Shown: piece after piece, positions 3,251-48,353 of the stretch
Layout: every line of letters starts with the position of its first letter
Numbering within the stretch: the stretch's first letter is position 1
Origin: Parcubacteria group bacterium GW2011_GWA1_40_21
GTDB taxonomy: Bacteria; Patescibacteriota; Minisyncoccia; Phycocordibacterales; GWA1-40-21
Reading direction: 5' to 3'
Assembly: GCA_000996205.1 (NCBI GenBank)
Contig: LBYO01000005.1
Coordinates: 1,728 to 65,727, forward strand
DNA length: 64,000 bases
Made by a program: the position numbers and the translations under genes
The notes under the pieces: generated by a model
The model's database searches: none
What the model saw: only the letters and a program-made list of their open reading frames with translations
Told to the model about the DNA's origin: nothing

Positions 3251-3322
3251 TAAAGATTGATAGTTCACGTTTGCGGTGGTATTATTATCGCATAATTTTA
3301 GAACCGCCTTACGCATTTATTT

Positions 3323-4564
3323 ATGCTAAATAATTTCTTGTCATTCATTTCTAATAATCTGCCGGATTTGGAAAGAATAGTTTTGGATACTTTAATCTCG
3401 TATTCGCCGATATGGCTTCCAATACTGCTTATAATTATCGGTTGGAAATTATGGGTGAGGTATATTAGAGCGCTTTTTTGGAGCAAGCAGAAGCGAATAC
3501 TTTTGGAAATCAAGTTGCCGAAAGAGATTACCAAATCGCCACTCGCAATGGAAACATTTCTAATAGGATTGCATCAGACCGGCCGCGAAGGGACATGGTA
3601 TGCCAAATTCTGGGAAGGGAAGACGAGGCCGTGGTTTTCTTTGGAAATGGTTTCCACAGAAGGAGTCGTGCGATTTTTCATCTGGACTGAAGCGTCTTTT
3701 AAAAACATAATTGAAGCGCAACTTTACGCTCAATATCCGACGGTGGAAATTTACGAAGCGCCGGATTATACCGAAGGAGTATTTTTTGACAAAGATAAAA
3801 TAGGGCTTATGGGCACAAACTTTGAATTCAGTAAATCTAGCGCTTACCCAATAAAAACTTATGTTGATTATGGGTTGGATAAAGCAGACACGAAGGAGGA
3901 ATACAAGACTGACCCGATTACGCCGATAATTGAATTTTTGGGTTCAATGGGGAAAGGCGAACAAGCTTGGATTCAAATCTTGATAAGAGCCCATAAGAAA
4001 GAGCAGATTAAGAAAGGGACATGGTTTGAAAAGGCAGATACTTGGCAGGACGAAGCCAAAGAGGAGATTGAGAAAATCAGGAAAGAAGCTACTCCAGAAA
4101 CTGAATCTGACTACCCCGCCTTTCCTAATCCGACCAAAGGTCAGATTGAGAAGATTGCCGCCATTGAAAAAAATGTTTCCAAGCTCGGATTTGATTGCGG
4201 CATTCGTATTATTTATCTTGCCGAGAAAAATAAATTTAATAAGGGTATGAGTGCCGCTATGACTGGCATTACCAGACAGTTTCATTCCAATAATTTAAAC
4301 AGTTTTAAATCCTACGGAATAACATTTTTTGATTATCCGTGGCAGGATTACAAAAGTATAAGGGTTAACAAGAAAAAAAAGAAAATGCTCAATGCTTACA
4401 AATTACGCTCCTATTTTTATCCGCCCTATCAGAAAAAATGGTTTGTGATAAATACGGAAGGGCTCGCTTCAATTTTCCACTTGCCCGGAAGTGTCGCGCA
4501 GACACCATCATTCGCGAGAATTGTTTCCAAGAAAGCCGAACCTCCGTCAAATTTGCCTATTTAG
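3323..4564 (+). CDS. hypothetical membrane-anchored protein
   Basis: N-terminal TM helix (PIWLPILLIIIGWKLWV) then large soluble domain; no confident family assignment. Confidence 0.4.
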   Translation: MLNNFLSFISNNLPDLERIVLDTLISYSPIWLPILLIIIGWKLWVRYIRALFWSKQKRILLEIKLPKEITKSPLAMETFLIGLHQTGREGTWYAKFWEGKTRPWFSLEMVSTEGVVRFFIWTEASFKNIIEAQLYAQYPTVEIYEAPDYTEGVFFDKDKIGLMGTNFEFSKSSAYPIKTYVDYGLDKADTKEEYKTDPITPIIEFLGSMGKGEQAWIQILIRAHKKEQIKKGTWFEKADTWQDEAKEEIEKIRKEATPETESDYPAFPNPTKGQIEKIAAIEKNVSKLGFDCGIRIIYLAEKNKFNKGMSAAMTGITRQFHSNNLNSFKSYGITFFDYPWQDYKSIRVNKKKKKMLNAYKLRSYFYPPYQKKWFVINTEGLASIFHLPGSVAQTPSFARIVSKKAEPPSNLPI

Positions 4565-4665: not shown

Positions 4666-4688
4666 AAGTCCTATAATTTTATTTATCA

Positions 4689-5687
4689 ATGTTTTACATA
4701 TTACATAAAGTGGCGGAAAAATTGTCATTCAAACCGAGCAAAAAGGTTTTGACTATTGCCGCCGCGACATTTTTTTTGGCGGCAGGATTTTTTTATTATT
4801 TTTTTGCAAGTCCTCCGGCTGACTTTCCCGTAAATTCTATATATTCAATTCCAGAAAAAAGCAATCTTTCAGAAATAGCGAATGAGGCTGAAAAAAATCA
4901 TATAATAAAATCAGCGCTGGCGTTAAAAGTTTTGACTATCTTATTTTCAGGAAATAAAGGTGTAATCTCCGGAGACTATGTCTTGGACAGGAAGGAGAAT
5001 GTGTTTGAAATTGCTCAAAGATTCACTGATGGAGATTTTAGGCTGTCAGCCGTAAAGATTACAGTTCCTGAAGGTTTTAGTGTTTATGATATAGCCGAAT
5101 TGTTATCCAAGAAAGATGATTTGCGGAATTTTAATAAAGAAGATTTTATCAGTCTCGCGAAAGACAAAGAAGGATATTTGTATCCCGACACATATTTTTT
5201 CCTGCCCAATATTAAAGCCAAGCAGATAATAGAAATTATGATGGATAATTTTAGAGACAAAGTTGAATTGATTCAGAAAGACGCCAAGAAATTCAATAAA
5301 ACCTTTCAAGAAGTCTTGATAATGGCTTCCATTCTTGAGAAAGAAGTCAGGACTGCGGAAGACAGGAGGATTGTCGCTGGAATTCTTTGGAAGAGGATAA
5401 AGATAGGAATGCCTCTTCAAGTTGACGCTGTTTTTCCTTACATAACGCAGAAAAAAGACAGAGCGATAGCTAAAGATGATTTAAAAATAAATTCACCCTA
5501 CAACACATATCTCAACAAAGGCTTGCCGCCCGGGCCGATTTCCAACCCAAGCTTGGACGCGATTGAGTCGGCCATTAATCCGAAAGAAACTAAATATCTT
5601 TTTTATATTTCAGATAAAAAGGGAATTACGCACTTCGCAAGCACGCTTGAGGAACACAATAAGAACATTGCGAGATATTTGAGATGA
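4689..5687 (+). CDS. mltG: endolytic murein transglycosylase MltG (YceG family)
   Basis: N-terminal TM, then YceG-like core; C-terminal GLPPGPISNPS...LFYIS...HFASTLEEHNKN matches MltG. Confidence 0.85.
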   Translation: MFYILHKVAEKLSFKPSKKVLTIAAATFFLAAGFFYYFFASPPADFPVNSIYSIPEKSNLSEIANEAEKNHIIKSALALKVLTILFSGNKGVISGDYVLDRKENVFEIAQRFTDGDFRLSAVKITVPEGFSVYDIAELLSKKDDLRNFNKEDFISLAKDKEGYLYPDTYFFLPNIKAKQIIEIMMDNFRDKVELIQKDAKKFNKTFQEVLIMASILEKEVRTAEDRRIVAGILWKRIKIGMPLQVDAVFPYITQKKDRAIAKDDLKINSPYNTYLNKGLPPGPISNPSLDAIESAINPKETKYLFYISDKKGITHFASTLEEHNKNIARYLR

Positions 5688-6215: not shown

Positions 6216-6279
6216 TATTACGCTCCTTCTCTTGATTAAGTTTTCCCTTGATAAAGTACACTATTATTAAGTTAATCTA

Positions 6280-6385
6280 CTTTGAATTACGAAACCCTTG
6301 TTTTCCGTCTTTGCGAGTCGGTACTCCGGCGTGGCAATCCAGAGCTTATCGCGCGTAATCATAGATTGCCACGCTTCTCATAATT
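6280..6385. repeat. MITE family A copy (truncated; left 'ctttgaattacgaaac' end only)
   Basis: about 100 bp nearly identical to the left halves of the copies at 32919 and 48045. Confidence 0.7.
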
Positions 6386-6428: not shown

Positions 6429-7607
6429 ATGAAAAAGATTGGGACAAACAACACAATGAATAAGTTAAAGAAAAAAGCTAAAGTCTTCGTGGCGATGTCG
6501 GGCGGGGTGGATAGCTCGCTTTCGGCGGCTTTGCTTAAAGAAGAAGGCTACGATGTGACTGGAGTATTCATAAAGGTTTGGCAGCCGGATTTTGTGGAAT
6601 GCGTTTGGAAGGAAGATAGGCTGGATGCGATGAGGGTGTGCGCGAAGTTGGGGATTAAATTCTTGACTCTTGATTTGGAGAAGGAATACAAAAGGGATGT
6701 GGTGGATTATATGGTAAGCGAATACAGGGAAGGACGGACGCCGAATCCGGATGTGAATTGCAACAAGTATGTGAAGTTTGGAGCCTTTTTTGATTTTGCG
6801 ATGAAAAACGGAGCAGACTATGTCGCGACGGGACACTATGCCCGCCTTCGGCGGGAATTTCCAATTTCTAAATCCCAATTTCCAAACAAATCAGAAATTC
6901 TAAATTCAAAAATACAAACTATTTATAAATTGCTCGAAGCAAGCGATTCAAACAAAGACCAGTCGTATTTTCTGTGGAATTTGACGCAGGAACATTTGAA
7001 GAGAACTCTCTTTCCCATCGGAGATATGCAAAAAACGGAGGTCAGGAAAATGGCGCGAAAATTCAACCTGCCTGTTTCAGAAAAAAAGGACAGCCAAGGA
7101 CTTTGCTTTATCGGCAAGGTGGATATGAAAGATTTTTTAAAACATTATCTGCCACCAAAGAAAGGAAATGTTTTGAATGAAAAAGGGGAAGTAATCGGCT
7201 GGCACGAAGGAGCCTATTTCTACACGATTGGCCAAAGGCATGGATTTATAATCACGAAAAAGTCGCCGGAGGATAAGCCTTATTACATAATTTCAAAAGA
7301 CATACCGTCAAACACAATCACGGTTTCTCACAGTCCTGCCACGCAAGGAATTTCATCGTCAAAAAAAATCACGATAAGCGGATCAAATTGGATAGCCGGC
7401 GAGCTTCCTGATTTAAATAAAAAATATAAAGCCAGAATTCGCTATCGCGAGCCACTTAAATCTTGCCGAATTGAAATGGTGAAAGAAGGTAATTCAAGAT
7501 TTTTGATTATCTTTGACTCTTCTCAAGCCGCCGTTTCCAGAGGACAATCGCTAGTCATTTACGACGGCGAGCATTGTATTGGCGGAGGGGTTATAGACAA
7601 TTTTTAG
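6429..7607 (+). CDS. mnmA: tRNA-specific 2-thiouridylase MnmA
   Basis: PP-loop AMSGGVDSS, VATGHYAR, LCFIGK motifs; low-complexity insert after the catalytic core. Confidence 0.9.
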   Translation: MKKIGTNNTMNKLKKKAKVFVAMSGGVDSSLSAALLKEEGYDVTGVFIKVWQPDFVECVWKEDRLDAMRVCAKLGIKFLTLDLEKEYKRDVVDYMVSEYREGRTPNPDVNCNKYVKFGAFFDFAMKNGADYVATGHYARLRREFPISKSQFPNKSEILNSKIQTIYKLLEASDSNKDQSYFLWNLTQEHLKRTLFPIGDMQKTEVRKMARKFNLPVSEKKDSQGLCFIGKVDMKDFLKHYLPPKKGNVLNEKGEVIGWHEGAYFYTIGQRHGFIITKKSPEDKPYYIISKDIPSNTITVSHSPATQGISSSKKITISGSNWIAGELPDLNKKYKARIRYREPLKSCRIEMVKEGNSRFLIIFDSSQAAVSRGQSLVIYDGEHCIGGGVIDNF

Positions 7608-9018: not shown

Positions 9019-9040
9019 TCTTTCATTTTCGAAAAATTTT

Positions 9041-9078
9041 CAACATCCGATGTCCAAATATTTGGACATCGGATGTTG
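9041..9078. repeat. REP-like palindrome dimer flanking the RAYT gene
   Basis: caacatccgatgtccaaatatttggacatcggatgttg is a perfect 38-bp self-complementary sequence. Confidence 0.8.
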
Positions 9079-9107
9079 AAAAATAAGTCATCGTAAAATG
9101 TAAATTC

Positions 9108-9809
9108 TTATTCAAGGGTGAAACCGTTGAAATCACTGGAGCTGAAATTTTTTAGTTCTTGATAAACCGAATTTTTATAACCTGATTCTCCGCCGAAATA
9201 ATCAAGAAAAAAATCTCTTTGAGTAACCGACGGAAAATTCTTTTTGCCCAGATAATCAAGATGACTGCTCCATCGGTATGATTCAAGAAATTTGATAGCG
9301 GAGTTGAGATTTTTAATACTTCGCTCTCTCCACTCCGGTGCATGAAGATCAAGAGGGTTAAAATGGATGTAGTATGGCATAAAAAGAAAATGACGATCTT
9401 CCGTGATTTGTATTGACTTGTATTTTCCTTGAAACAGAGCTCCGACGCGTTCATATTTTTCATTGAAATATTTTGAGTAGCCCATATTGAGTTTCTTCAT
9501 AAATAAAGAAACGCCTTTTTCATTTATCGGAGAAATTAATAGGTGATAATGATTCGGCATCATGCTAAAAGCATGAATTTTCACTAAGCATTTTCTAGGT
9601 CTTGGTGATTTTGTTTTCTCAATCTTTGGACATTCGATGTCCAAAGATTGATTGTAAGATTGGCAAAAACGGTAATTATTCGCATAAACATTATTTTCAT
9701 CATTGAATTCAAATAAATCGTGAACAAAGCGAAAATGATCTTCTTCATCTTGAAAGATTGTCCTTTTGTCAACGCCCCTGTTGAGTATGTGATATAGTCC
9801 TAATTCCAT
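9108..9809 (-). mobile_element. REP-associated tyrosine transposase (RAYT) / IS200-like HuH Y1 transposase
   Basis: HuH motif MPNHYHLLIS and a Y1-transposase-like C-terminus; flanked on both sides by 'ttggacatcggatgtccaa' palindromes. Confidence 0.75.
9624..9646. repeat. REP-like palindrome copy inside the RAYT coding sequence
   Basis: ctttggacattcgatgtccaaag; in frame it encodes SLDIECPKIE. Confidence 0.6.
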
Positions 9810-9891: not shown

Positions 9892-10698
9892 ATGTCGCAA
9901 TATTACAATTCAAAGAGGACCAGAAATCTATTCAGTCCGGAATCACAAGAGCCGTTCAAATTGAGTCGTTCAAAGATTGACCTTTTTATTGAGTGTCCGA
10001 GATGTTTTTATCTGGACCGGCGGCTTGGGGTGGGAAGGCCTCCCGGCTTTCCTTTCACTTTAAACAGCGCGGTGGACTTTTTGCTAAAGAAAGAATTTGA
10101 CATTCACAGAAAACATAAAACTACCCATCCTTTAATGGAAAAATACGGAATAGATGCTGTCCCAATCCAGCATCATGATATGGAAATGTGGAGAGATAAT
10201 TTTGTCGGCATTCAACATCTTCATAAGCCGAGTAATTTTATAATTACTGGCGCGATTGACGATCTTTGGGTGAATAAAAAAGGCGAAGTTATTATCGTTG
10301 ATTACAAAGCGACGAGCAAAGACGAAGAGGTTAATCTTGATGCCGAGTGGCAAGACGGTTATAAGCGGCAGATGGAAGTCTATCAATGGCTTTTCAAGCA
10401 AAACGGATTCACGGTTTCTCCGACGGGATATTTCGTTTACGCCAACGGGCGAAAAGACAAAGAAGCCTTTGATGGAAAACTTGAATTTGAAGTGAGTATA
10501 ATAGCTTATAAAGGGAAAACTGATTGGGTGGAAGGCGTGCTTATTGACGCCCAAAAAACCTTGACCGGCGATTCAATTCCTAAAATAGGAGAGAGGTGTG
10601 ATTATTGCCCTTATCGCAACTCGGCGGGGGAGGCGCTCGCAAAAATAGTAAAAGGAGCAAAAGCGAATTTGAAAACCGAGCCGACATTGTTTAGTTGA
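9892..10698 (+). CDS. PD-(D/E)XK nuclease, Cas4-like, with Cys-rich Fe-S signature (solitary, no CRISPR)
   Basis: N-terminal CPRC, catalytic-core-like D...IVDYK, C-terminal GERCDYCPYRNSAGE cysteines as in Cas4/DUF83. Confidence 0.6.
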   Translation: MSQYYNSKRTRNLFSPESQEPFKLSRSKIDLFIECPRCFYLDRRLGVGRPPGFPFTLNSAVDFLLKKEFDIHRKHKTTHPLMEKYGIDAVPIQHHDMEMWRDNFVGIQHLHKPSNFIITGAIDDLWVNKKGEVIIVDYKATSKDEEVNLDAEWQDGYKRQMEVYQWLFKQNGFTVSPTGYFVYANGRKDKEAFDGKLEFEVSIIAYKGKTDWVEGVLIDAQKTLTGDSIPKIGERCDYCPYRNSAGEALAKIVKGAKANLKTEPTLFS

Positions 10699-12470: not shown

Positions 12471-12533
12471 TCCCTCCTCAGTTTTAATCTTAGAAATTTC
12501 TATTTTCCAAAACTGGGGAGGGATATTCGTGCT
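12471..12533. repeat. hairpin element family C ('tccctcctcagtttta...aaaactggggaggga')
   Basis: about 60-bp near-perfect inverted repeat; homologous copies at 21546 (inside rnpB) and 48147 (nested in a MITE). Confidence 0.7.
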
Positions 12534-12630
12534 TTTAAAAATAGAATGCGAGCGTGTTTAGTGTCGGCGGAGCTGATATCATAACTAAAAAAGAAACCCT
12601 GATGCCCCGCACTCTGGCGCGGGGATTTCT

Positions 12631-21246: not shown

Positions 21247-21320
21247 TTAGTCTTTACTAGGACACCGCGCAGACGAAGAGTATTTTGCTCACACCTCCCC
21301 CATATTTCTTTCATTCCGTC

Positions 21321-21416
21321 TGTCATCCCTCGTATCAAGTACGAGGGCAGGCTCCCGCGAATGCGGGGATCCAGTTTCAGTCACTAATGGGGCGAATTTT
21401 TTCAAGGGAATGACAG
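21321..21416. repeat. 'gtcatccc...ggggatccag...gggaatgaca' repeat element (copy B)
   Basis: terminal inverted repeat tctgtcatccct / aagggaatgacaga enclosing ctcccgcgaatgcggggatccag. Confidence 0.6.
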
Positions 21417-21481
21417 AAGGAAGCGTGAGTGGGCGCAACGAAGACATTTGCGACCTTTTTGCTTTTATTGTATATTATTTC

Positions 21482-21918
21482 CGTCTTTGCGCCGGATAGC
21501 CACTGAGTTCCGACTTGCTCGGAGCTTAGAGGAAAGTCCGAACACTCTCCCTCCCCAGTTTTAGGCTCTCGAAATTTCTATAGTCTAAAACTGGGGAGGG
21601 AAACAGGGTAGCGGGTAACGCCCGTCTGGAGCAATCCAAGAGGTGCGAACAGAGACGCCAAACATCGAAAGATGTTTGGGCGCTTCCGAAAGGAGGCGTA
21701 GTCCAGCTCCAGTTTTGAGAGATTGATTTTTCGATAATTCAAAACTGGGGCTGGGGTGCAACGGCAAAATCCTTACCCGGGTGCAAGGCCGTGTCTCCCG
21801 ATGTAATGTCGGGGGAAGTGCCGCTTGAGTCCAGCGGTAACGCTGGACCTAGATAAATGGCTATACAATTTCGCACAATGCGGAGTAGACAGAATTCGGC
21901 TTATAGGCGCAAAGGCAT
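21482..21918 (+). ncRNA. rnpB: RNase P RNA (bacterial type)
   Basis: conserved GAGGAAAGUCCG (P4 5' strand), GGGUAACGCC, ACAGAAuuCGGCUUA (P4 3' strand); 5' ctttgcgcc pairs with 3' ggcgcaaag (P1). Confidence 0.8.
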
Positions 21919-21920
21919 TA

Positions 21921-21960
21921 AATCAAAACCGTTCCATACAAGTGGAGCGGTTTTGATTTT
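21921..21960 (+). terminator. rho-independent terminator after rnpB
   Basis: aatcaaaaccg...cggttttgatttt. Confidence 0.65.
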
Positions 21961-22127
21961 CCTGTTTGAATGAGGGTTTGAATTGCCGAAAAAGACGAGA
22001 TAGCCAAAATCTCCAAGAAAACCAACCCCTCCCAACCCCCCCCTTTATCAGGGGGAGTTCAGTTTTCCCCCTGACAAGGGGGATTAAGGGGGTTTGAATT
22101 TATTTTACCCTTTTCCAACTGTCAAAT

Positions 22128-22205: not shown

Positions 22206-24668
22206 ATGGAAGAAAACAAAATAGAAATAAAAATCGGCAATCCGTCCAATCAAGAAACAAAGCCTCTGAAAAAATATTATCGTTCTGAAAAAATTTCTTA
22301 CATTTCTTTGCTCGTAAGCGCTTTTTTGCTGCCATTATTTTTTATACCGTCTCAATTCACCTTACTTGAATTGAGCAAAGTTTTGATAATGGTTTTAGGT
22401 GTCCTGATTTCTTTGGTTTTTTGGAGTCTGTCTGGAATCAAAGAAGGGAAATTTGAATTTTCCTCAACCGCCCTCTTTCCAAGCGCTTTCTTTATAATCC
22501 TCATTTATTTTTTGTCGGCGATGTTTTCCGGAAGCAAGATGAATTCGCTCTTTGGGCAGGGTTTTGAGTTGGGAACTTTCGGTCTGGTTTTTATCGGGTT
22601 CGCCCTTATGTTTATGGTTTCGTCTGTTTTTAAAACAAGAGACAGAATATTTTATTCTTACATATGTTTGATAATTTCATCCCTTATCGTATTTTTATTT
22701 CAAACGGCTAGACTTTTATCAGGCGCTGATTTTCTGTCCTTGGGAGTTTTCAAAGACATTACTTCCAATATGATAGGCAAATGGAACGATCTTGGTATTT
22801 ATTTCGGCCTCGTCGCCCTTCTTTCGGTTGTCACGATTGAGCTTACCAAATTCAGCAAGATGATGAGGTTTTTTCTGTATTTTATTTCCATAGCCTCGCT
22901 ATTTTTCATAGCTTTGATCAATTTTAAGGTCGTTTGGTTTACAATCGGCTTCTTCGCTCTCATTTTCTTTATTTACTCCATTTCCTTAAAAATGAGAGGT
23001 GAAACGACCAAGTCCGAGAATTCGTCGGGAGGTTCCAAAAGGACGCCTTATTTTGTTCTCTTCTTTCTCATAATATCAACGCTATTCATTATTGACGGGT
23101 TTAGAAGCAAACATATTATCGGCGACTCAATGGCTGATTATTTCAAGGTCTCCCATATTGAAGTCAGACCGTCTTTCCGTGGGACTTCGGAAATTTTGAA
23201 AGGAAGTTTCAAGAAAAATCCAGTTTTGGGTTCAGGGCCTAACAAGTTTTTAAATGACTGGCTTCTGTTTAAATCAGACGGAATCAACAATACGATTTTT
23301 TGGAATTTTGACTTTAGTTACGGAGTCGGCATCATCCCGACTTTTATAACCACGACCGGAATATTGGGTATGATTTCCTGGATTATTTTCTTCGGATTAT
23401 TTCTTTATATCGGGTTTAAGAATATTTTTATCAAAGTCGGAAATTCATTTTCACGCTATCTGATAGTTTCCTCATTTTTAGCTAGCCTTTATTTGTGGAT
23501 AGTCAATGTGTTTTATGTTCCGAGCGCCGTCATATTTTTTCTGACCTTCTTTTTCACGGGGCTTTTTATCAGCGTTCTTGCGAGCGAGAATTTAATACCC
23601 TTGAAGAGGCTTGCTTTCTTAAGCAATTCGCGCCGAAATTTCATCTTCGTGTCCATTTTGGCGATTATAATCATATCTTCAATCACTGGAAGTTATGTTT
23701 ATTTTCAAAAATTCTTTTCCAATATTTATTTTCAAAAGTCTCTGAATTCTCTGAACGGCTCCGGCAATCTTGATGATGCCGAAAGATACGCGGTAAAGGC
23801 GGCTTCTTTTTCAAAGAGCGATTCTTATTACAGATTGTTATCCGATATTTCTCTTGCCCGATTAAATTCTTTGTCTTCGCGGAAAGATCTCACAAAAGAA
23901 GCTCTGAACAACCAGTTTCAATCAATATTTCAAAATATGATTAAAAGTTCAAAAGCGGCCATTGATTACGACGGCTTGAATTATCAAAATTATCTCACCG
24001 CCGGGCGGGTATATGAGTCGATTGTGCCAATGGAGGGAGCCTACAAAATAGCTTACGAAAATTATAATAAAGCTTTGAGTTTGAATCCGAAAAGTCCGCT
24101 TATCAATTTAACGCTTGCCAGACTTGAAACTTCCAACAAAAACAACATCAAAGCGAAAGAATACGCAATAAAATCTCTTCAATTGAAAAATAATTATACG
24201 GACGCGGTGTTTCTTCTGGCTCAGATTGAAATAGCGGAGGGCAATATAAAAGAAGCGATTAAACTCGTTGAAGCGGGTTCAATTCTGGCCTCCGATAATC
24301 CCGTCGCGTATTTCCAATTGGGCGTTCTTAAATACAGCGACAAAGAAAAAAATTATAAAGGAGCGGCAGAAGCTTTTGAAAAAGCTGTGGCCATTAGTCC
24401 TTCCTATTCCAACGCGCGCTACTTTCTCGGTCTAAGTTATTACAATTTGGGAAAAACAATTGATGCGATAAGGCAATTTGAATCGGTTCAATCGCTCAAT
24501 CCCGACAACAAAGAGGTTGAGTTTATTTTAAAGAATTTGAGAGATGGAAGAGCGCCGTTCGCGAACGCCGCGCCGCCGATTGACGATAAGCCTGAAAAAA
24601 GAAAAAATTTGCCGGTGAAGGAAGATGGGCTGAAAGAAACAAAGAAGAAAGAGGCAAAACAGAGATAA
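22206..24668 (+). CDS. large polytopic membrane protein (O-antigen ligase/Wzy-like) with C-terminal TPR repeats
   Basis: more than 10 predicted TM helices over ~470 aa, then TPR-like repeats (AYENYNKALSLNP, ARYFLGLSYYNLGK). Confidence 0.5.
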   Translation: MEENKIEIKIGNPSNQETKPLKKYYRSEKISYISLLVSAFLLPLFFIPSQFTLLELSKVLIMVLGVLISLVFWSLSGIKEGKFEFSSTALFPSAFFIILIYFLSAMFSGSKMNSLFGQGFELGTFGLVFIGFALMFMVSSVFKTRDRIFYSYICLIISSLIVFLFQTARLLSGADFLSLGVFKDITSNMIGKWNDLGIYFGLVALLSVVTIELTKFSKMMRFFLYFISIASLFFIALINFKVVWFTIGFFALIFFIYSISLKMRGETTKSENSSGGSKRTPYFVLFFLIISTLFIIDGFRSKHIIGDSMADYFKVSHIEVRPSFRGTSEILKGSFKKNPVLGSGPNKFLNDWLLFKSDGINNTIFWNFDFSYGVGIIPTFITTTGILGMISWIIFFGLFLYIGFKNIFIKVGNSFSRYLIVSSFLASLYLWIVNVFYVPSAVIFFLTFFFTGLFISVLASENLIPLKRLAFLSNSRRNFIFVSILAIIIISSITGSYVYFQKFFSNIYFQKSLNSLNGSGNLDDAERYAVKAASFSKSDSYYRLLSDISLARLNSLSSRKDLTKEALNNQFQSIFQNMIKSSKAAIDYDGLNYQNYLTAGRVYESIVPMEGAYKIAYENYNKALSLNPKSPLINLTLARLETSNKNNIKAKEYAIKSLQLKNNYTDAVFLLAQIEIAEGNIKEAIKLVEAGSILASDNPVAYFQLGVLKYSDKEKNYKGAAEAFEKAVAISPSYSNARYFLGLSYYNLGKTIDAIRQFESVQSLNPDNKEVEFILKNLRDGRAPFANAAPPIDDKPEKRKNLPVKEDGLKETKKKEAKQR

Positions 24669-24886
24669 CCGTGAATTATGAAACTTGTCGAGGCGCGCTG
24701 TTTTCGGGAGGTTTTGAGTCCGGTGCCAGTTTTGATCTATGGAAAATTGCACAAACAAAACTGGTGCTGGACGAAAACTTCAGGATTTTTTAAGCTTCAA
24801 AAAATATGGACATTAAAAACAGCGCGCCGAGTAAGAGTTTCGTGATTTACAAATAGATAATCAGATAATCAATTTTTCTCGCGAAG

Positions 24887-26566
24887 ATGGTAAAAACTGT
24901 ATTAAAAATTTTTCACAGGGAGATAAGCGGACTTCATGAGGCCGCTTATCTTTTGGCGTTTTTCGCGATTATGTCCCAGATTTTGGGATTAATCAGGGAC
25001 AGGCTTCTCGCGTACTCTTTCGGCGCGAGTAGTACCCTTGATATTTATTACGCGGCATTTCGGATACCTGATTTTATATTTGTCACCGTGGCTTCCATCG
25101 TTTCAATTTCCGTTCTCGTTCCATTCCTCATTGAAAAATTGGATCAAGGCGCAGTTCTCGGCAAGAAATTCATTGATAACATATTTTCTTTCTTTTTCAT
25201 TTTGATATTCGGGGTCAGTCTTTTGGCTTATTTTTTAATGCCATATCTTGTCCCGCTTATTTTTTCCGGTCTAAACGAAACGGATAAGATGTCGGAGCTT
25301 ATAACAATCGCTCGCATTTTGCTTTTGTCGCCAGTATTTTTGGGACTTTCAAATTTCTTCGCGAGCATCACTCAAGTCTATCGCCGATTTTTAATATACG
25401 GTTTAAGCCCGCTTTTTTATAATATTGGAATTATAATCGGAATTTTGTTTTTTTATCCGATATTCGGCCTGAAAGGCCTTGTTTTCGGAGTGATTCTGGG
25501 AGCCATTTTTCATTTTTCCATACAGATACCTTTTGTCCGGAAGCAAGGTCTTATTCCCAGATTTTCATTTTCTATTGATTACGCTGAAATAAGAAGAGTC
25601 GTATTTTTATCTGTCCCAAGAACGATTACTCTCGGCATACACCAAATAGGACTGATTTTTTTGATTTCTATCGCTTCCAGAATGACCGAAGGATCAATTT
25701 CCGTGTTTAATTTTTCTTTGAATTTACAGTCCGTGCCCCTTTCAATAATAGGGGTCAGTTATTCAATCGCGGCTTTTCCCACTTTATCGCGGCTTTTTTC
25801 GTCAGGACAAAGAGATAATTTCTTGCGGCAGATTATTGTTTCATCAAGACATATTATATTTTGGTCAATTCCCGTGAGCGTTTTGTTTATAGTCCTCCGC
25901 GCTCAAATAGTGAGAACTATTTTAGGTGCGGGCAAATTCAGCTGGGAAGATACCAGACTCACGGCCGCCGCGCTCGCTCTGTTTACCATATCAATAGTCG
26001 CTCAAAGTATGGTGCTCTTGTTTGTAAGAGGTTATTACGCGATGGGCAATACGAAAAAACCTCTCTTTACGGGCTTGTTTTCCGGCGCGATGATAATTTT
26101 ATTTTCCTTTATTCTCATCGCAATATTCAACAATTTTCCAATGTTCCGATATTTTATTGAGTCTCTGCTTAGGGTGGACGATATTTCAGGAACGGCGGTC
26201 TTGATGCTCCCGCTCGGATACTCCCTCGCTCTTGTCGCCAATTGCGTTCTTCTTGGAATTTATTTTCACAGAGATTTTCCCGATTTTTTCAAAGCAATCG
26301 CCAAGACATTATTCCAGAGTTTCAGCGCCTCAATCATTATGGGCTTTGCCGCTTATTTAAGCCTTAATATTTTTGATAACATCTTTAATCTCAATACGCT
26401 CATCGGCATATTTTCTCAAGGTTTGTTTTCCGGATTAGTCGGCATATTCGCGCTTATCTTGACTCTAAAACTTTTGAAGAGCAGAGAAGCGGATGAAATA
26501 TGGAAAACTATGCATAAGAAAATTTGGAAAGCCAAGCCTATCTCTCCGGATGTGCAGGAGTTGTGA
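24887..26566 (+). CDS. murJ: lipid II flippase MurJ (MviN)
   Basis: LLAYSFGASSTLDIYYAAFRIPDF N-terminal signature; 14-TM architecture. Confidence 0.85.
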   Translation: MVKTVLKIFHREISGLHEAAYLLAFFAIMSQILGLIRDRLLAYSFGASSTLDIYYAAFRIPDFIFVTVASIVSISVLVPFLIEKLDQGAVLGKKFIDNIFSFFFILIFGVSLLAYFLMPYLVPLIFSGLNETDKMSELITIARILLLSPVFLGLSNFFASITQVYRRFLIYGLSPLFYNIGIIIGILFFYPIFGLKGLVFGVILGAIFHFSIQIPFVRKQGLIPRFSFSIDYAEIRRVVFLSVPRTITLGIHQIGLIFLISIASRMTEGSISVFNFSLNLQSVPLSIIGVSYSIAAFPTLSRLFSSGQRDNFLRQIIVSSRHIIFWSIPVSVLFIVLRAQIVRTILGAGKFSWEDTRLTAAALALFTISIVAQSMVLLFVRGYYAMGNTKKPLFTGLFSGAMIILFSFILIAIFNNFPMFRYFIESLLRVDDISGTAVLMLPLGYSLALVANCVLLGIYFHRDFPDFFKAIAKTLFQSFSASIIMGFAAYLSLNIFDNIFNLNTLIGIFSQGLFSGLVGIFALILTLKLLKSREADEIWKTMHKKIWKAKPISPDVQEL

Positions 26567-26583
26567 TGATTGTAAATTGATAC

Positions 26584-26688
26584 CTTGAATTACGAAATGC
26601 AAAAATTTAGGTCTGGTTGAGCAAAAACATTTAGAAGACAAAGAGGTTTTGCGACCCGAGGACCTAAATTTTTGCATTTCGTAATTCA
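26584..26688. repeat. MITE family B copy ('ttgaattacgaaatgcaaaaattt' TIR)
   Basis: about 24-bp terminal inverted repeats; second copy at 27494. Confidence 0.75.
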
Positions 26689-27456: not shown

Positions 27457-27493
27457 CTGATTGATAATAATTGTATTTTCAGAGTATAATGAA

Positions 27494-27604
27494 CCCCGAA
27501 TTACGAAATGCAAAAATTCAGGTCCTCGGGTTATAAAAGCTATTTGTTTTTTTAAATGTTTTTGCTCAATAGACCTATAAATTTTTGCATTTCGTAATTC
27601 GGGG
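27494..27604. repeat. MITE family B copy 2
   Basis: ccccgaattacgaaatgcaaaaatt...aatttttgcatttcgtaattcgggg. Confidence 0.75.
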
Positions 27605-27655
27605 TAATAAAGTTATAAGTTTTTAATTTTTTTATACAATTTACGCAACATCACA

Positions 27656-32918: not shown

Positions 32919-33061
32919 CTTTGAATTACGAAACCCTCATTTTCCGTCTTTGCGAGCCGGTACTCCGGCGTGGCAATCCAGAGTTTACCGCGCGTAATAA
33001 TGGATTGCTTCGCTTCGCTCGCAAAGACAATGCGGTAATGTGATAGTTTCGTAATTCAAAG
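32919..33061. repeat. MITE family A, complete copy (~143 bp)
   Basis: TIRs ctttgaattacgaaac / gtttcgtaattcaaag; internal ttgcgagc...gctcgcaaag inverted repeat. Confidence 0.8.
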
Positions 33062-33140
33062 TGAACTTGATAACTTTCAACTTATTTGCTTGACTAATCA
33101 TATGGCAATTTGCTAACATAGTGTTTGCTGTTTTAAAGTA

Positions 33141-48038: not shown

Positions 48039-48044
48039 CAGTCA

Positions 48045-48245
48045 CTTTGAATTACGAAACCTTCGTTTTCCGTCATTGCGAGCCGGTACTCCGGCGTGGC
48101 AATCCAGAGTTTACCGCGCGCAATAATGGATTGCTTCGCTCCGCTCGCCCCTCCCCAGTTTTAAGTTTTGGAAATATCCAGAATCTAAAACTGGGGAGGG
48201 GCTCGCAAAGACAATGCGGCAATATGATAGTTTCGTAATTCAAAG
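48045..48245. repeat. MITE family A copy carrying a nested family-C hairpin insertion (48147..48200)
   Basis: same TIRs and internal sequence as 32919..33061, but interrupted at ...ccgctcgc|cccctccccagtttt...aaaactggggaggg|gctcgcaaag with duplicated gctcgc. Confidence 0.8.
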
Positions 48246-48353
48246 TCAGTCATTAAAATTTGATAACTGATTGCATCATGTTTAATATTAAAAACAAAAG
48301 CCACCCTTTAAAGATGGCTTTATAGGCACGGTAATTTTCTTCTTTCAAGAAGA

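Follow-up and report, generated by a model that had tools for sequence, protein, structure and literature searches.

We analysed a stretch of 64,000 nucleotides (nt; hereafter the window) from contig LBYO01000005.1 of Parcubacteria group bacterium GW2011_GWA1_40_21, which carries a gene for the RNA of RNase P (rnpB) in which two long hairpins, H1 and H2, are members of one repeat family. On the plus strand, positions 21484..21919 match the Rfam model for bacterial class A RNase P RNA (RF00010) from model position 1 to 367 with 99.4 bits (E 4.5e-31). The match lies 0.6 bits short of the gathering score of 100 bits and was found in E-value mode on positions 21300-22100; a default scan of the whole window at the Rfam gathering thresholds called four tRNAs only and not rnpB. 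The shortfall arises because two large inserts stay unaligned to the model, and the rnpB genes of relatives with fewer inserts reach 107-128 bits. An earlier note on this DNA had called the gene atypical, which is borne out by the inserts and the score alike. Both strands of helix P4 (GAGGAAAGUCCG and ACAGAAnnCGGCUUA) are nevertheless intact, the core helices P1-P3, P8, P12 and P18 were recovered by model alignment together with the minimum free energy (MFE) fold, and in that fold both hairpins stand as independent structures. The identical rnpB sequence is found in four other metagenome assemblies covering the locus, all of the Rifle aquifer sample series. We read the gene as that of a true class A RNase P RNA, from an aquifer-groundwater bacterium of the Parcubacteria type within the Candidate Phyla Radiation (CPR; Patescibacteria). 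The helix map used below (Table 1) is our reading of the sequence, checked against the MFE fold and alignments with relatives.

On this map H1 lies where the earlier note had placed it, after the 5' strand of P4: it follows GAGGAAAGUCCG and the P5 strand CACUC, and precedes the P7 strand GGGUA and P8 (GCGGGUAACGCCCGU). The hairpin, given there as a perfect one of about 55 nt at 21546..21600, is real and runs from 21548 to 21601, with pairing that is perfect for 20 consecutive base pairs and is then interrupted by an internal loop (MFE -37.1 kcal/mol, z -7.9). The second hairpin, placed by the note at 21703..21760, is likewise real, lies at 21702-21755 (MFE -33.1 kcal/mol, z -7.5) and belongs to the same family by the covariance model described below. 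Regarding the helix regions proposed for the two, P5.1/P8 and P12, the first agrees with the position of H1 between P5 and P7, while the second had to be given up: P12 is intact and H2 aligns with P14 of the relatives. In class A RNAs the L14 loop docks on P8; by taking the place of P14, H2 removes this loop, which makes the gene a natural variant testing the dispensability of the L14-P8 contact.

The simple pattern CCAGTTTTR-N(10-40)-YAAAACTGG occurs four times in the window as against none in 100 shuffles of it. A covariance model of the hairpin (R1; 54 positions and 18 pairs, built from 50 copies), run over the window with filters off, retrieves exactly five copies (H0 to H4) with E-values of 3e-16 to 1e-11 on the better-scoring strand; the next match is an ordinary hairpin with E = 0.02. 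Two of these five sit in rnpB, a gene that amounts to 0.7% of the window. H0 and H4 correspond to the copies seen by the earlier note at 12471 and 48147, and H3 is a fifth copy that it had missed. All five fold as long hairpins (MFE -27 to -44 kcal/mol, z -6.2 to -9.6) and fall into two subfamilies by their outer stem, namely CCCUCC/GGAGGG in H0, H1 and H4, and CCAGCU/GGCUGG in H2 and H3. From the outside inwards, this repeat unit (the module) consists of a 7-bp outer stem of the form [U/C]CCAGCY or CCCUCC, an invariant stem CCAGUUUU...AAAACUGG, a small internal loop and a central palindrome of the type UAGAAAUUUCUA. The inverted-repeat ends are common to all copies, with the invariance of CCAGTTTT/AAAACTGG being a product of ascertainment. 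Across the 50 copies the 16-bp outer helix is 99.4% paired, with both-sided changes at five of its 16 pairs, and in 30 of the copies one and the same outer-stem position has a U.G wobble. No consistent orientation of the module relative to the host RNA was found, since both directions of the U.G / C.A asymmetry are represented.

Metagenomes were searched with a 33-nt anchor taken from the segment that joins P14 and P15, which yielded 92 rnpB loci of the clade to which the window belongs (fetched relative loci are denoted by L-numbers), and the eight closest relatives have near-identical rnpB cores. Among these eight, the module shows presence/absence polymorphism at four orthologous sites in rnpB, each recognisable from segment lengths: the P5-P7 segment measures 30-45 nt at baseline and 71 nt with a module, the P12-P14 segment 57-77 nt and 102 nt, the P15-17 segment 22 nt and about 60 nt (41 nt in one truncated copy), and the segment from P18 to the 3' strand of P4 40-63 nt and about 94 nt. 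At the P5/P7 site, the window, L124 (identical copy) and L075 (three differences) have the module, and L141, L134 and L069 a short hairpin. The P14 site is occupied by a module in the window and L141 (one difference), by a hairpin of the UCGAACACCA-GCAA-UGGUGUUCG type in L124, L075, L069 and L134, and by a GUAA-capped one in L107 and L044. Modules are present at the P15-17 site in L124, L075, L134, L107 and L141, with a truncated version in L069 and a short state in the window. The site preceding the 3' strand of P4 has the module in L075, L134, L069, L107 and L044, is short in the window, and holds in L124 a different palindrome of 100 nt with CCAGCACC arms. The comparison with relatives that the earlier note had proposed therefore reveals short hairpins at the window's module sites and modules where the window has short hairpins, the sites without a module holding short tetraloop-capped hairpins (GNRA-capped at P14).

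L124 is syntenic with the window across RNR, rnpB, the TPR protein and MurJ at 87-92% nucleotide identity, and its own P15-17 and P5/P7 copies differ at three of 54 positions. Variant copies display symmetric double changes, such as CCAC...GUGG in L075, L134, L107 and L141, and GCAG...CUGC in L037. Strict vertical inheritance of the modules, with the same site occupied in every member, is contradicted at the four rnpB sites; under vertical descent the pattern seen in the window, L124 and L141 would require several gains, losses or recombination events. Other inserts are also found in the rnpB genes of relatives, including an AT-rich long palindrome at P15-17 of L044, an insert of about 200 nt in P9 of L141 and L134, and tandem short repeats of the CTGGA type in L063 (4140-4745). 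L003 (ERZ27254729 k141_243937) contains an inverted duplication of itself, with the same genes running outward both ways from about position 10280, which is probably an assembly artefact ending just before rnpB.

Outside rnpB, H4 is a bona fide insertion with target duplication. It is lodged in a repeat of about 190 nt, and exactly 58 nt are missing from two copies of this repeat, one in the window (32919-33062) and the other in L124 (3280-3455). With the insert, the site has the sequence GCTCGC-[CCCTCC...GGAGGG]-GCTCGC as against a single GCTCGC in both empty paralogues, giving a target duplication of 4-6 bp (GCTCGC, or only CTCG when 54 nt are assigned to the element); the nested insertion suspected by the earlier note is thereby corroborated. 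The host repeat family begins TGAATTACGAAACC..GTCATTGCGAGCCGGTACTCCGGCGTGGCAATCCAGAG, and its copies number at least three in the window and three in L124 (Table 1). Two long perfect inverted repeats in the window (26586-26688 and 27493-27605; arms of 26-28 nt, TGAATTACGAAATGCAAAAATT..., and spacers of 47 and 61 nt) begin GAATTACGAAA, as does this family. Regarding the other intergenic copies, no clean empty site was found for H3 in the relatives compared: its spacer is absent in L134 and contains a different repeat in L124, leaving no junction. There is also none for H0, next to which a separate 63-nt indel is the only difference between the window and the assemblies of the same population. 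This 63-nt segment, present in three such assemblies (L001 3958-4020, L002 and L005) and lacking from the window at 12552/12553, lies about 30 nt after H0, is flanked by a short GCGAG direct repeat and represents an indel polymorphism within the population.

To survey the wider distribution of the module we used the strict pattern CCAGTTTTR-N20-23-YAAAACTGGGG on one genome per species from 185,579 species. It recovered 58 loci, about 46 of them from CPR/Patescibacteria, spanning Paceibacterota, Kaiser-, Zambryski-, Yonath-, Taylor-, Nomura- and Doudnabacteria, and metagenome-assembled genomes labelled Saccharibacteria. By context, the CPR loci comprise nine in rnpB, seven in group I introns, three in 16S rRNA and one in 23S rRNA; the rest are intergenic, lying between open reading frames (ORFs), and among those checked none overlaps a convincing long ORF. 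The 16S site common to L029 and L051 looks, from its flanks, like the tip of helix 44. When all rnpB genes compared are considered, at least five positions in this RNA accept the module, namely P5/P7, P13, P14, P16/17 and the hairpin preceding the 3' strand of P4. As a check for bias of the pattern, R1 was run over the 92 rnpB-anchored loci (668.6 kb), which had been chosen only for the rnpB anchor: about 20 of 21 distinct matches fall within rnpB, which makes up about 6% of that DNA, and one elsewhere. Hence, in the rnpB-anchored clade the family is strongly concentrated in rnpB and not evenly dispersed, and the window with its three intergenic copies is the dispersed end of the range. The dispersed family proposed by the earlier note is thus real as regards the intergenic copies, but the term understates the concentration in rnpB among the sampled relatives. 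In two further loci (L011 455-507 and L019 1450-1502) a module is situated directly 5' of a tRNA-like T-arm (GGTTCGATTCC / GGTTCGAGTCC). ARAGORN calls no tRNA at these two contexts, where the hairpin may lie in the variable region of a tRNA or tmRNA gene.

A search for module ends without a nearby partner led to two loci (L060 4501-4805 and L025 4199-4504) in which complete module arms surround about 250 nt, forming an element of about 305 nt. The loop of both encodes an ORF of 87-88 aa (4513..4776 in L060) with the GIY-YIG catalytic domain (PF01541, E 3.5e-18 and 4.2e-15), whose nearest solved relative is the stand-alone UPF0213 protein 1zg2 (E 1.4e-4). The 87-aa protein comprises the catalytic domain only, with no recognisable DNA-binding extension. 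A database search returned 42 GIY-YIG homologues, and we examined the contigs of eight. All those with at least 55% identity (L157, L158, L159/L160, L161, L162 and L163) are bracketed by module arms of the form CCAGCYCCAGUUUUAGGUA ... ACCUAAAACUGGGGCUGG, with the TAA stop codon lying inside the 3' arm. The element is found in rnpB at the site preceding the 3' strand of P4 in L157 and L158, and at the P15-17 site in L159/L160, L161 and L162. L163 has a compensated arm variant (CCCUAGUUUUGGG) in a host that we take to be 23S rRNA, assigned by eye from its resemblance to the E. coli sequence. Counting L060 and L025, module arms bracket an ORF of 86-87 aa in eight of eight close homologues examined, six of which are in rnpB with the ORF on the sense strand. 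In contrast to these, the two distant homologues examined (L164 and L166; 43-46% identity) lack module arms. The former (L164 1501-1758) lies near smpB, possibly in or beside tmRNA, and the latter (L166 1314-1764) directly after a 23S_rRNA_IVP ORF.

The ORF-bearing elements use the P15-17 site and the site preceding the 3' strand of P4, where other genomes have ORF-less modules. At the latter site three states are observed: a short tetraloop hairpin (L021 and the window), the 54-nt module (L036, L044, L054 and L075) and the ORF-bearing form of about 305 nt (L060, L157 and L158). Thus, the arrangement typical of homing elements, with an embedded endonuclease ORF and the same site occurring empty, ORF-bearing and ORF-less, is encountered here in relatives only. 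An autonomous partner of the kind known for miniature inverted-repeat transposable elements (MITEs) was not found: the longer elements that share the ends of the module code for a GIY-YIG nuclease and not for a known transposase. A second GIY-YIG type (94 aa) occurs at the P15-17 site of rnpB with a 15-nt inverted repeat, CCCCCCACCACAATA (L060 4857-5147, L074 837-1127 and at least eight similar contigs); in L060 and the L074 group it lies between CCCCCCACCACAAUA repeats. The other arms of this second type indicate that the design of a hairpin plus GIY-YIG is not limited to one arm sequence.

Table 1. Features of the rnpB locus, copies of the hairpin family and copies of the ~190-nt repeat; coordinates are those of the window unless a relative is named
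Feature	Position	Strand	Remarks
Hairpin H0	12471..12523		intergenic; R1 52.4 bits, E 1e-11; no overlapping ORF of at least 100 aa
Promoter-like site TTGCGA-17-TATATT	21448..21476	+	predicted by consensus scan; ends 7 nt 5' of rnpB
rnpB	21484..21919	+	RF00010 match
P1	21484-21493 / 21906-21915	+	helix map
P4 5' strand GAGGAAAGUCCG	21529-21540	+	helix map
P5 5' strand CACUC	21543-21547	+	helix map
Hairpin H1	21548..21601	+	between P5 and P7 (rnpB P5/P7), topological position of type B P5.1; R1 63 bits, E 1e-14
P7 5' strand GGGUA	21606-21610	+	helix map
P8 GCGGGUAACGCCCGU	21611-21625	+	helix map
P12	21656-21682	+	helix map; normal, GAAA-capped
P13	21683-21696	+	helix map
Hairpin H2	21702..21755	+	helix map; at P14 position, aligns with P14 of relatives; R1 68.7 bits, E 3.6e-16
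P16/17 hairpin	21794-21816	+	helix map
P18	21830-21847	+	helix map
Short hairpin preceding P4 3' strand	21868-21886	+	helix map
P4 3' strand	21889-21903	+	helix map
Terminator-like hairpin	21920..21959	+	predicted; directly 3' of rnpB
Hairpin H3	24719..24771		intergenic, between TPR-protein gene (22206..24668) and murJ (24887..26566); R1 52.1 bits, E 1.2e-11
Hairpin H4	48148..48201		nested in a copy of the ~190-nt repeat; R1 69 bits, E 3e-16
~190-nt repeat, window copies	6279-6375, 32919-33062, 48040-48260		
~190-nt repeat, L124 copies	3280-3455, 4670-4790, 7400-7500		

Other structured repeats flank rnpB in the window, with an element of the type GTCATCCCTCG...GCGAATGCGGGGATCCAG upstream (21300-21420) and a C/G-rich hairpin, CCCCTTTATCAGGGGGA/TCCCCCTGACAAGGGGG, downstream (22022-22096). 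On the minus strand at 9108-9809 the window encodes an IS200-like Y1 transposase of 233 aa, with a perfect 46-nt palindrome just past the 3' end of its gene (9037-9082) and another palindrome at 9619-9651.

Taken together, the occupancy of the sites among relatives, the insertion of H4, the presence of the module in other host RNAs and the link to the GIY-YIG ORF support the idea, already offered by the earlier note, of a mobile hairpin inserted into peripheral helices of a predicted functional ribozyme gene. We consider it likely that the hairpins in rnpB are ORF-less miniature forms of a hairpin-bounded GIY-YIG element, which are tolerated as self-contained helices. Under this proposal, a near-perfect palindromic element of about 54 bp would be gained and lost at the DNA level and would persist where a self-folding hairpin is harmless, i.e. 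in intergenic DNA and at junctions or helix tips of structured RNA genes (foremost rnpB, besides group I introns and the genes for 16S and 23S rRNA). Once transcribed, it would form an extra long helix or replace a short one. The 54-nt copies would be either ORF-less derivatives of the same-arm element of about 305 bp or landing pads of the ORF-bearing element; the loop of the latter would encode a stand-alone UPF0213/YhbQ-type GIY-YIG nuclease, read in the same direction as the host RNA gene, and this enzyme could supply the DNA break driving the spread. The hairpins might either stay in the mature RNase P RNA or be cut out, for instance by RNase III. A more specific version of this scenario, which we advance tentatively as a possibility on the weaker side of even, is that the GIY-YIG hairpin element has rnpB as its main home, with other structured RNA genes being secondary, is translated within the ribozyme transcript, and decays first to 54-nt palindromes and then to short tetraloop hairpins, thereby creating helices absent from the class A consensus (at P5/P7 and preceding the 3' strand of P4).

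Several observations weigh against the derivation of the rnpB hairpins from a mobile GIY-YIG element. The modules in rnpB replace whole short hairpins instead of being seated in hairpin loops, and no pairing continues into the flanks past the 7-bp outer stem. The idea that the module entered the loop of a stem already present was rejected because of these unpaired flanks, with L008 as the sole exception: in this locus (128-181) a terminator-like hairpin, AAAAAAACGAA...TTCGTTTTTTT, has the module exactly in its loop, and this is the only copy with flanks that continue the stem. The 'empty' hairpins of rnpB often have module-like bases (CCUC...GGAGG) and may have arisen by erosion of modules instead of preceding an insertion, so that gains are difficult to distinguish from losses. 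A clear target duplication is seen at H4 only: among 55 distinct copies, flanking direct repeats of at least 3 nt occur in five as against about 0.9 by chance, three of the five being the same intron site; this is hardly more than chance, and a general target-site duplication is accordingly unsupported. Classical homing leaves no target duplication, and no single insertion mechanism is favoured by these data. No GIY-YIG gene of the module-arm type lies within the 64-kb window, so that mobilisation in this genome would be in trans or historical. The hairpins could also be older than the GIY-YIG ORF, which would then have invaded them and not given rise to them. As to the survey, the strict pattern demands 20 exact bases and over-samples conserved copies, and the approximately 26 'intergenic' contexts were judged by ORFs, unannotated RNAs not having been searched for.

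A different origin would be that CPR RNase P RNA has the hairpins as native, lineage-specific helices (expansion segments), which would serve a purpose of their own, for instance by stabilising the fold or as the binding site of a CPR-specific protein; the copies elsewhere would then be the same functional module in other structured RNAs or copies taken from rnpB. This would fit the conservation of the stem sequence across distant lineages and hosts (rnpB, rRNA and group I introns), the strong enrichment within rnpB, the recurrence of the U.G wobble in 30 of 50 copies and the presence of some P5-P7 hairpin in all members of the clade where the class A consensus has none. However, the presence of the module is patchy and the occupied site varies among near-identical rnpB genes, copies are found in plain intergenic DNA and nested in another repeat with a target duplication, and the same arms carry a nuclease ORF. 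Further, the orientation defined by the wobble goes both ways relative to the host RNA and the centre is a DNA-style perfect palindrome instead of a defined RNA loop, features which together point to a DNA-level origin rather than selection of an RNA motif. We therefore regard native helices as improbable, and the copying of such helices around the genome, the other reading offered by the earlier note, is not needed for these results, though a native RNase P helix may be the ultimate origin of the family. A still more remote candidate is a REP-like system (REP, repetitive extragenic palindrome), with hairpins mobilised by a Y1 transposase of the RAYT or IS200-IS605 type, for which there is a gene in the window (PF01797, E 4e-9). 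Enzymes of the Y1 type act on imperfect single-strand DNA hairpins, and the module has a recurrent mismatch or wobble position; but the two palindromes beside the Y1_Tnp gene are unrelated in sequence to the module (R1 at background, E 5.5), Y1 transposition leaves no target duplication while H4 has one, and it is GIY-YIG ORFs that the module arms surround, in eight of eight cases. Y1 as the mobiliser was hence rejected as very improbable.

The fate of the hairpins after transcription is a separate question, on which an alternative modelled on the intervening sequences (IVSs) of rRNA is compatible with the DNA-level origin preferred above: RNase III would remove the hairpins without religation, leaving a mature RNase P RNA in fragments. 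Perfect duplexes of 16-20 bp in the outer stem of every copy (20 in H1) would suit RNase III, and the modules resemble IVSs in their placement at junctions and the tips of helices. At two sites of CPR 23S rRNA, short insertions other than introns have been read as IVSs of the RNase III type (Tsurumaki et al., 2024; PMC11270868). One of the GIY-YIG homologues (L166) also adjoins an ORF for a 23S rRNA IVS protein. On the other side, we know of no report of a fragmented bacterial RNase P RNA, and judging from the sequence we see such excision as rather unlikely, if less so than either a native origin or Y1 mobilisation of the hairpins.

If the more specific scenario, with rnpB as the main home and decay to short hairpins, is right, selfish DNA would have a concrete way, still in operation, of building expansion segments in a ribozyme. 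The locus gives an unusually clear and testable picture of selfish palindromic DNA remodelling a ribozyme gene. For annotation, the family offers a concrete cause for 'missing' or oddly extended RNase P RNAs in the CPR, and masking the 54-nt repeat would restore normal covariance-model scores. In terms of RNA evolution, the ORF-bearing element, the 54-nt palindrome, the truncated palindrome and the short tetraloop hairpin are all seen at single sites among relatives, and with this series of states the way in which a ribozyme or rRNA acquires new peripheral helices can be put directly to the test. Moreover, the tie of a minimal 87-aa GIY-YIG protein to one palindrome suggests target choice by structure or palindrome, unlike that of classical homing endonucleases, which recognise long sites.

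Several known systems bear comparison with the module. Bacterial MITEs, REP-type repeats, the Rickettsia palindromic elements and the small dispersed repeats of Nostoc are short, non-coding, multicopy palindromes that are polymorphic in presence and absence; palindromes of the MITE and REP type are tolerated in genes if their fold is harmless and are sometimes nested in other repeats. The module resembles these in being a short multicopy palindrome with polymorphic presence and nesting, but it is only 54 bp long, consists of a single near-perfect palindrome and is concentrated in structured RNA genes, and the gene in its candidate autonomous partner is one for a GIY-YIG nuclease and not for a transposase of the DDE or Y1 kind. 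Closer in terms of the host, short tandemly repeated repetitive (STRR) sequences reportedly occur in P12 of rnpB in heterocystous cyanobacteria, as Vioque is said to have described in 1997. The likeness lies in a genome-wide repeat family residing within a peripheral helix of a functional RNase P RNA gene; yet the STRR are tandem heptamers confined to P12, whereas the module is a discrete palindrome with several alternative sites that leaves P12 untouched. The IVSs of 23S rRNA are hairpin insertions at helix tips that are excised by RNase III, are patchy among relatives and in some cases have a small ORF in the loop. They share with the module the setting at helix tips of an essential structured RNA, the patchiness and the ORF in the loop of some copies; the module differs in having a ribozyme gene as its host and in its ORF encoding a GIY-YIG nuclease instead of the four-helix IVS protein. 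Finally, P5.1 of type B (Bacillus-type) RNase P RNA is a hairpin between P5 and P7 and has the same topological position as H1. There is, however, no sequence relationship between the two, the molecule is otherwise of type A, and H1 is a member of a repeat family with short hairpins in its place in relatives.

According to Lui, Nielsen and Arkin (2021; PMC8172020), CPR RNase P RNAs score below Rfam thresholds, have to be refolded by hand and either lack helices or show 'large extensions of helices'. The rnpB of the window, with 99.4 bits as against the gathering score of 100, is akin to these diverged RNAs; in the passages of that article consulted here the extensions are described without a shared repeat family, a comparison of site occupancy or GIY-YIG ORFs in rnpB. 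Insertions are numerous in the rRNA genes of CPR bacteria, where they lie at the top or base of stem-loops; only those that are not introns encode GIY-YIG proteins, and many short ORF-less insertions of less than 200 bp are uncharacterised; GIY-YIG is regarded there as sparse, outside the homing context (Tsurumaki et al., 2024; PMC11270868). The module in 16S and 23S rRNA and the GIY-YIG copy with module-like arms in L163 parallel these insertions. That study deals with rRNA only and makes no mention of hairpins, palindromes or RNase P, whereas the present case concerns one GIY-YIG clade and one conserved hairpin, mainly in rnpB. The literature searched, which excluded most subscription journals, contained no description of the hairpin family, whether under palindromic or hairpin elements of Parcubacteria or under GIY-YIG and RNase P RNA. 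An atypical rnpB is thus to be expected for the CPR and the general phenomenon has precedents in the STRR, the Rickettsia palindromic elements and the 23S rRNA IVSs, so that this is not a new kind of system; what appears to be undescribed so far is the conserved palindrome itself, together with the way it clusters in rnpB at alternative positions and is linked to a minimal GIY-YIG ORF.

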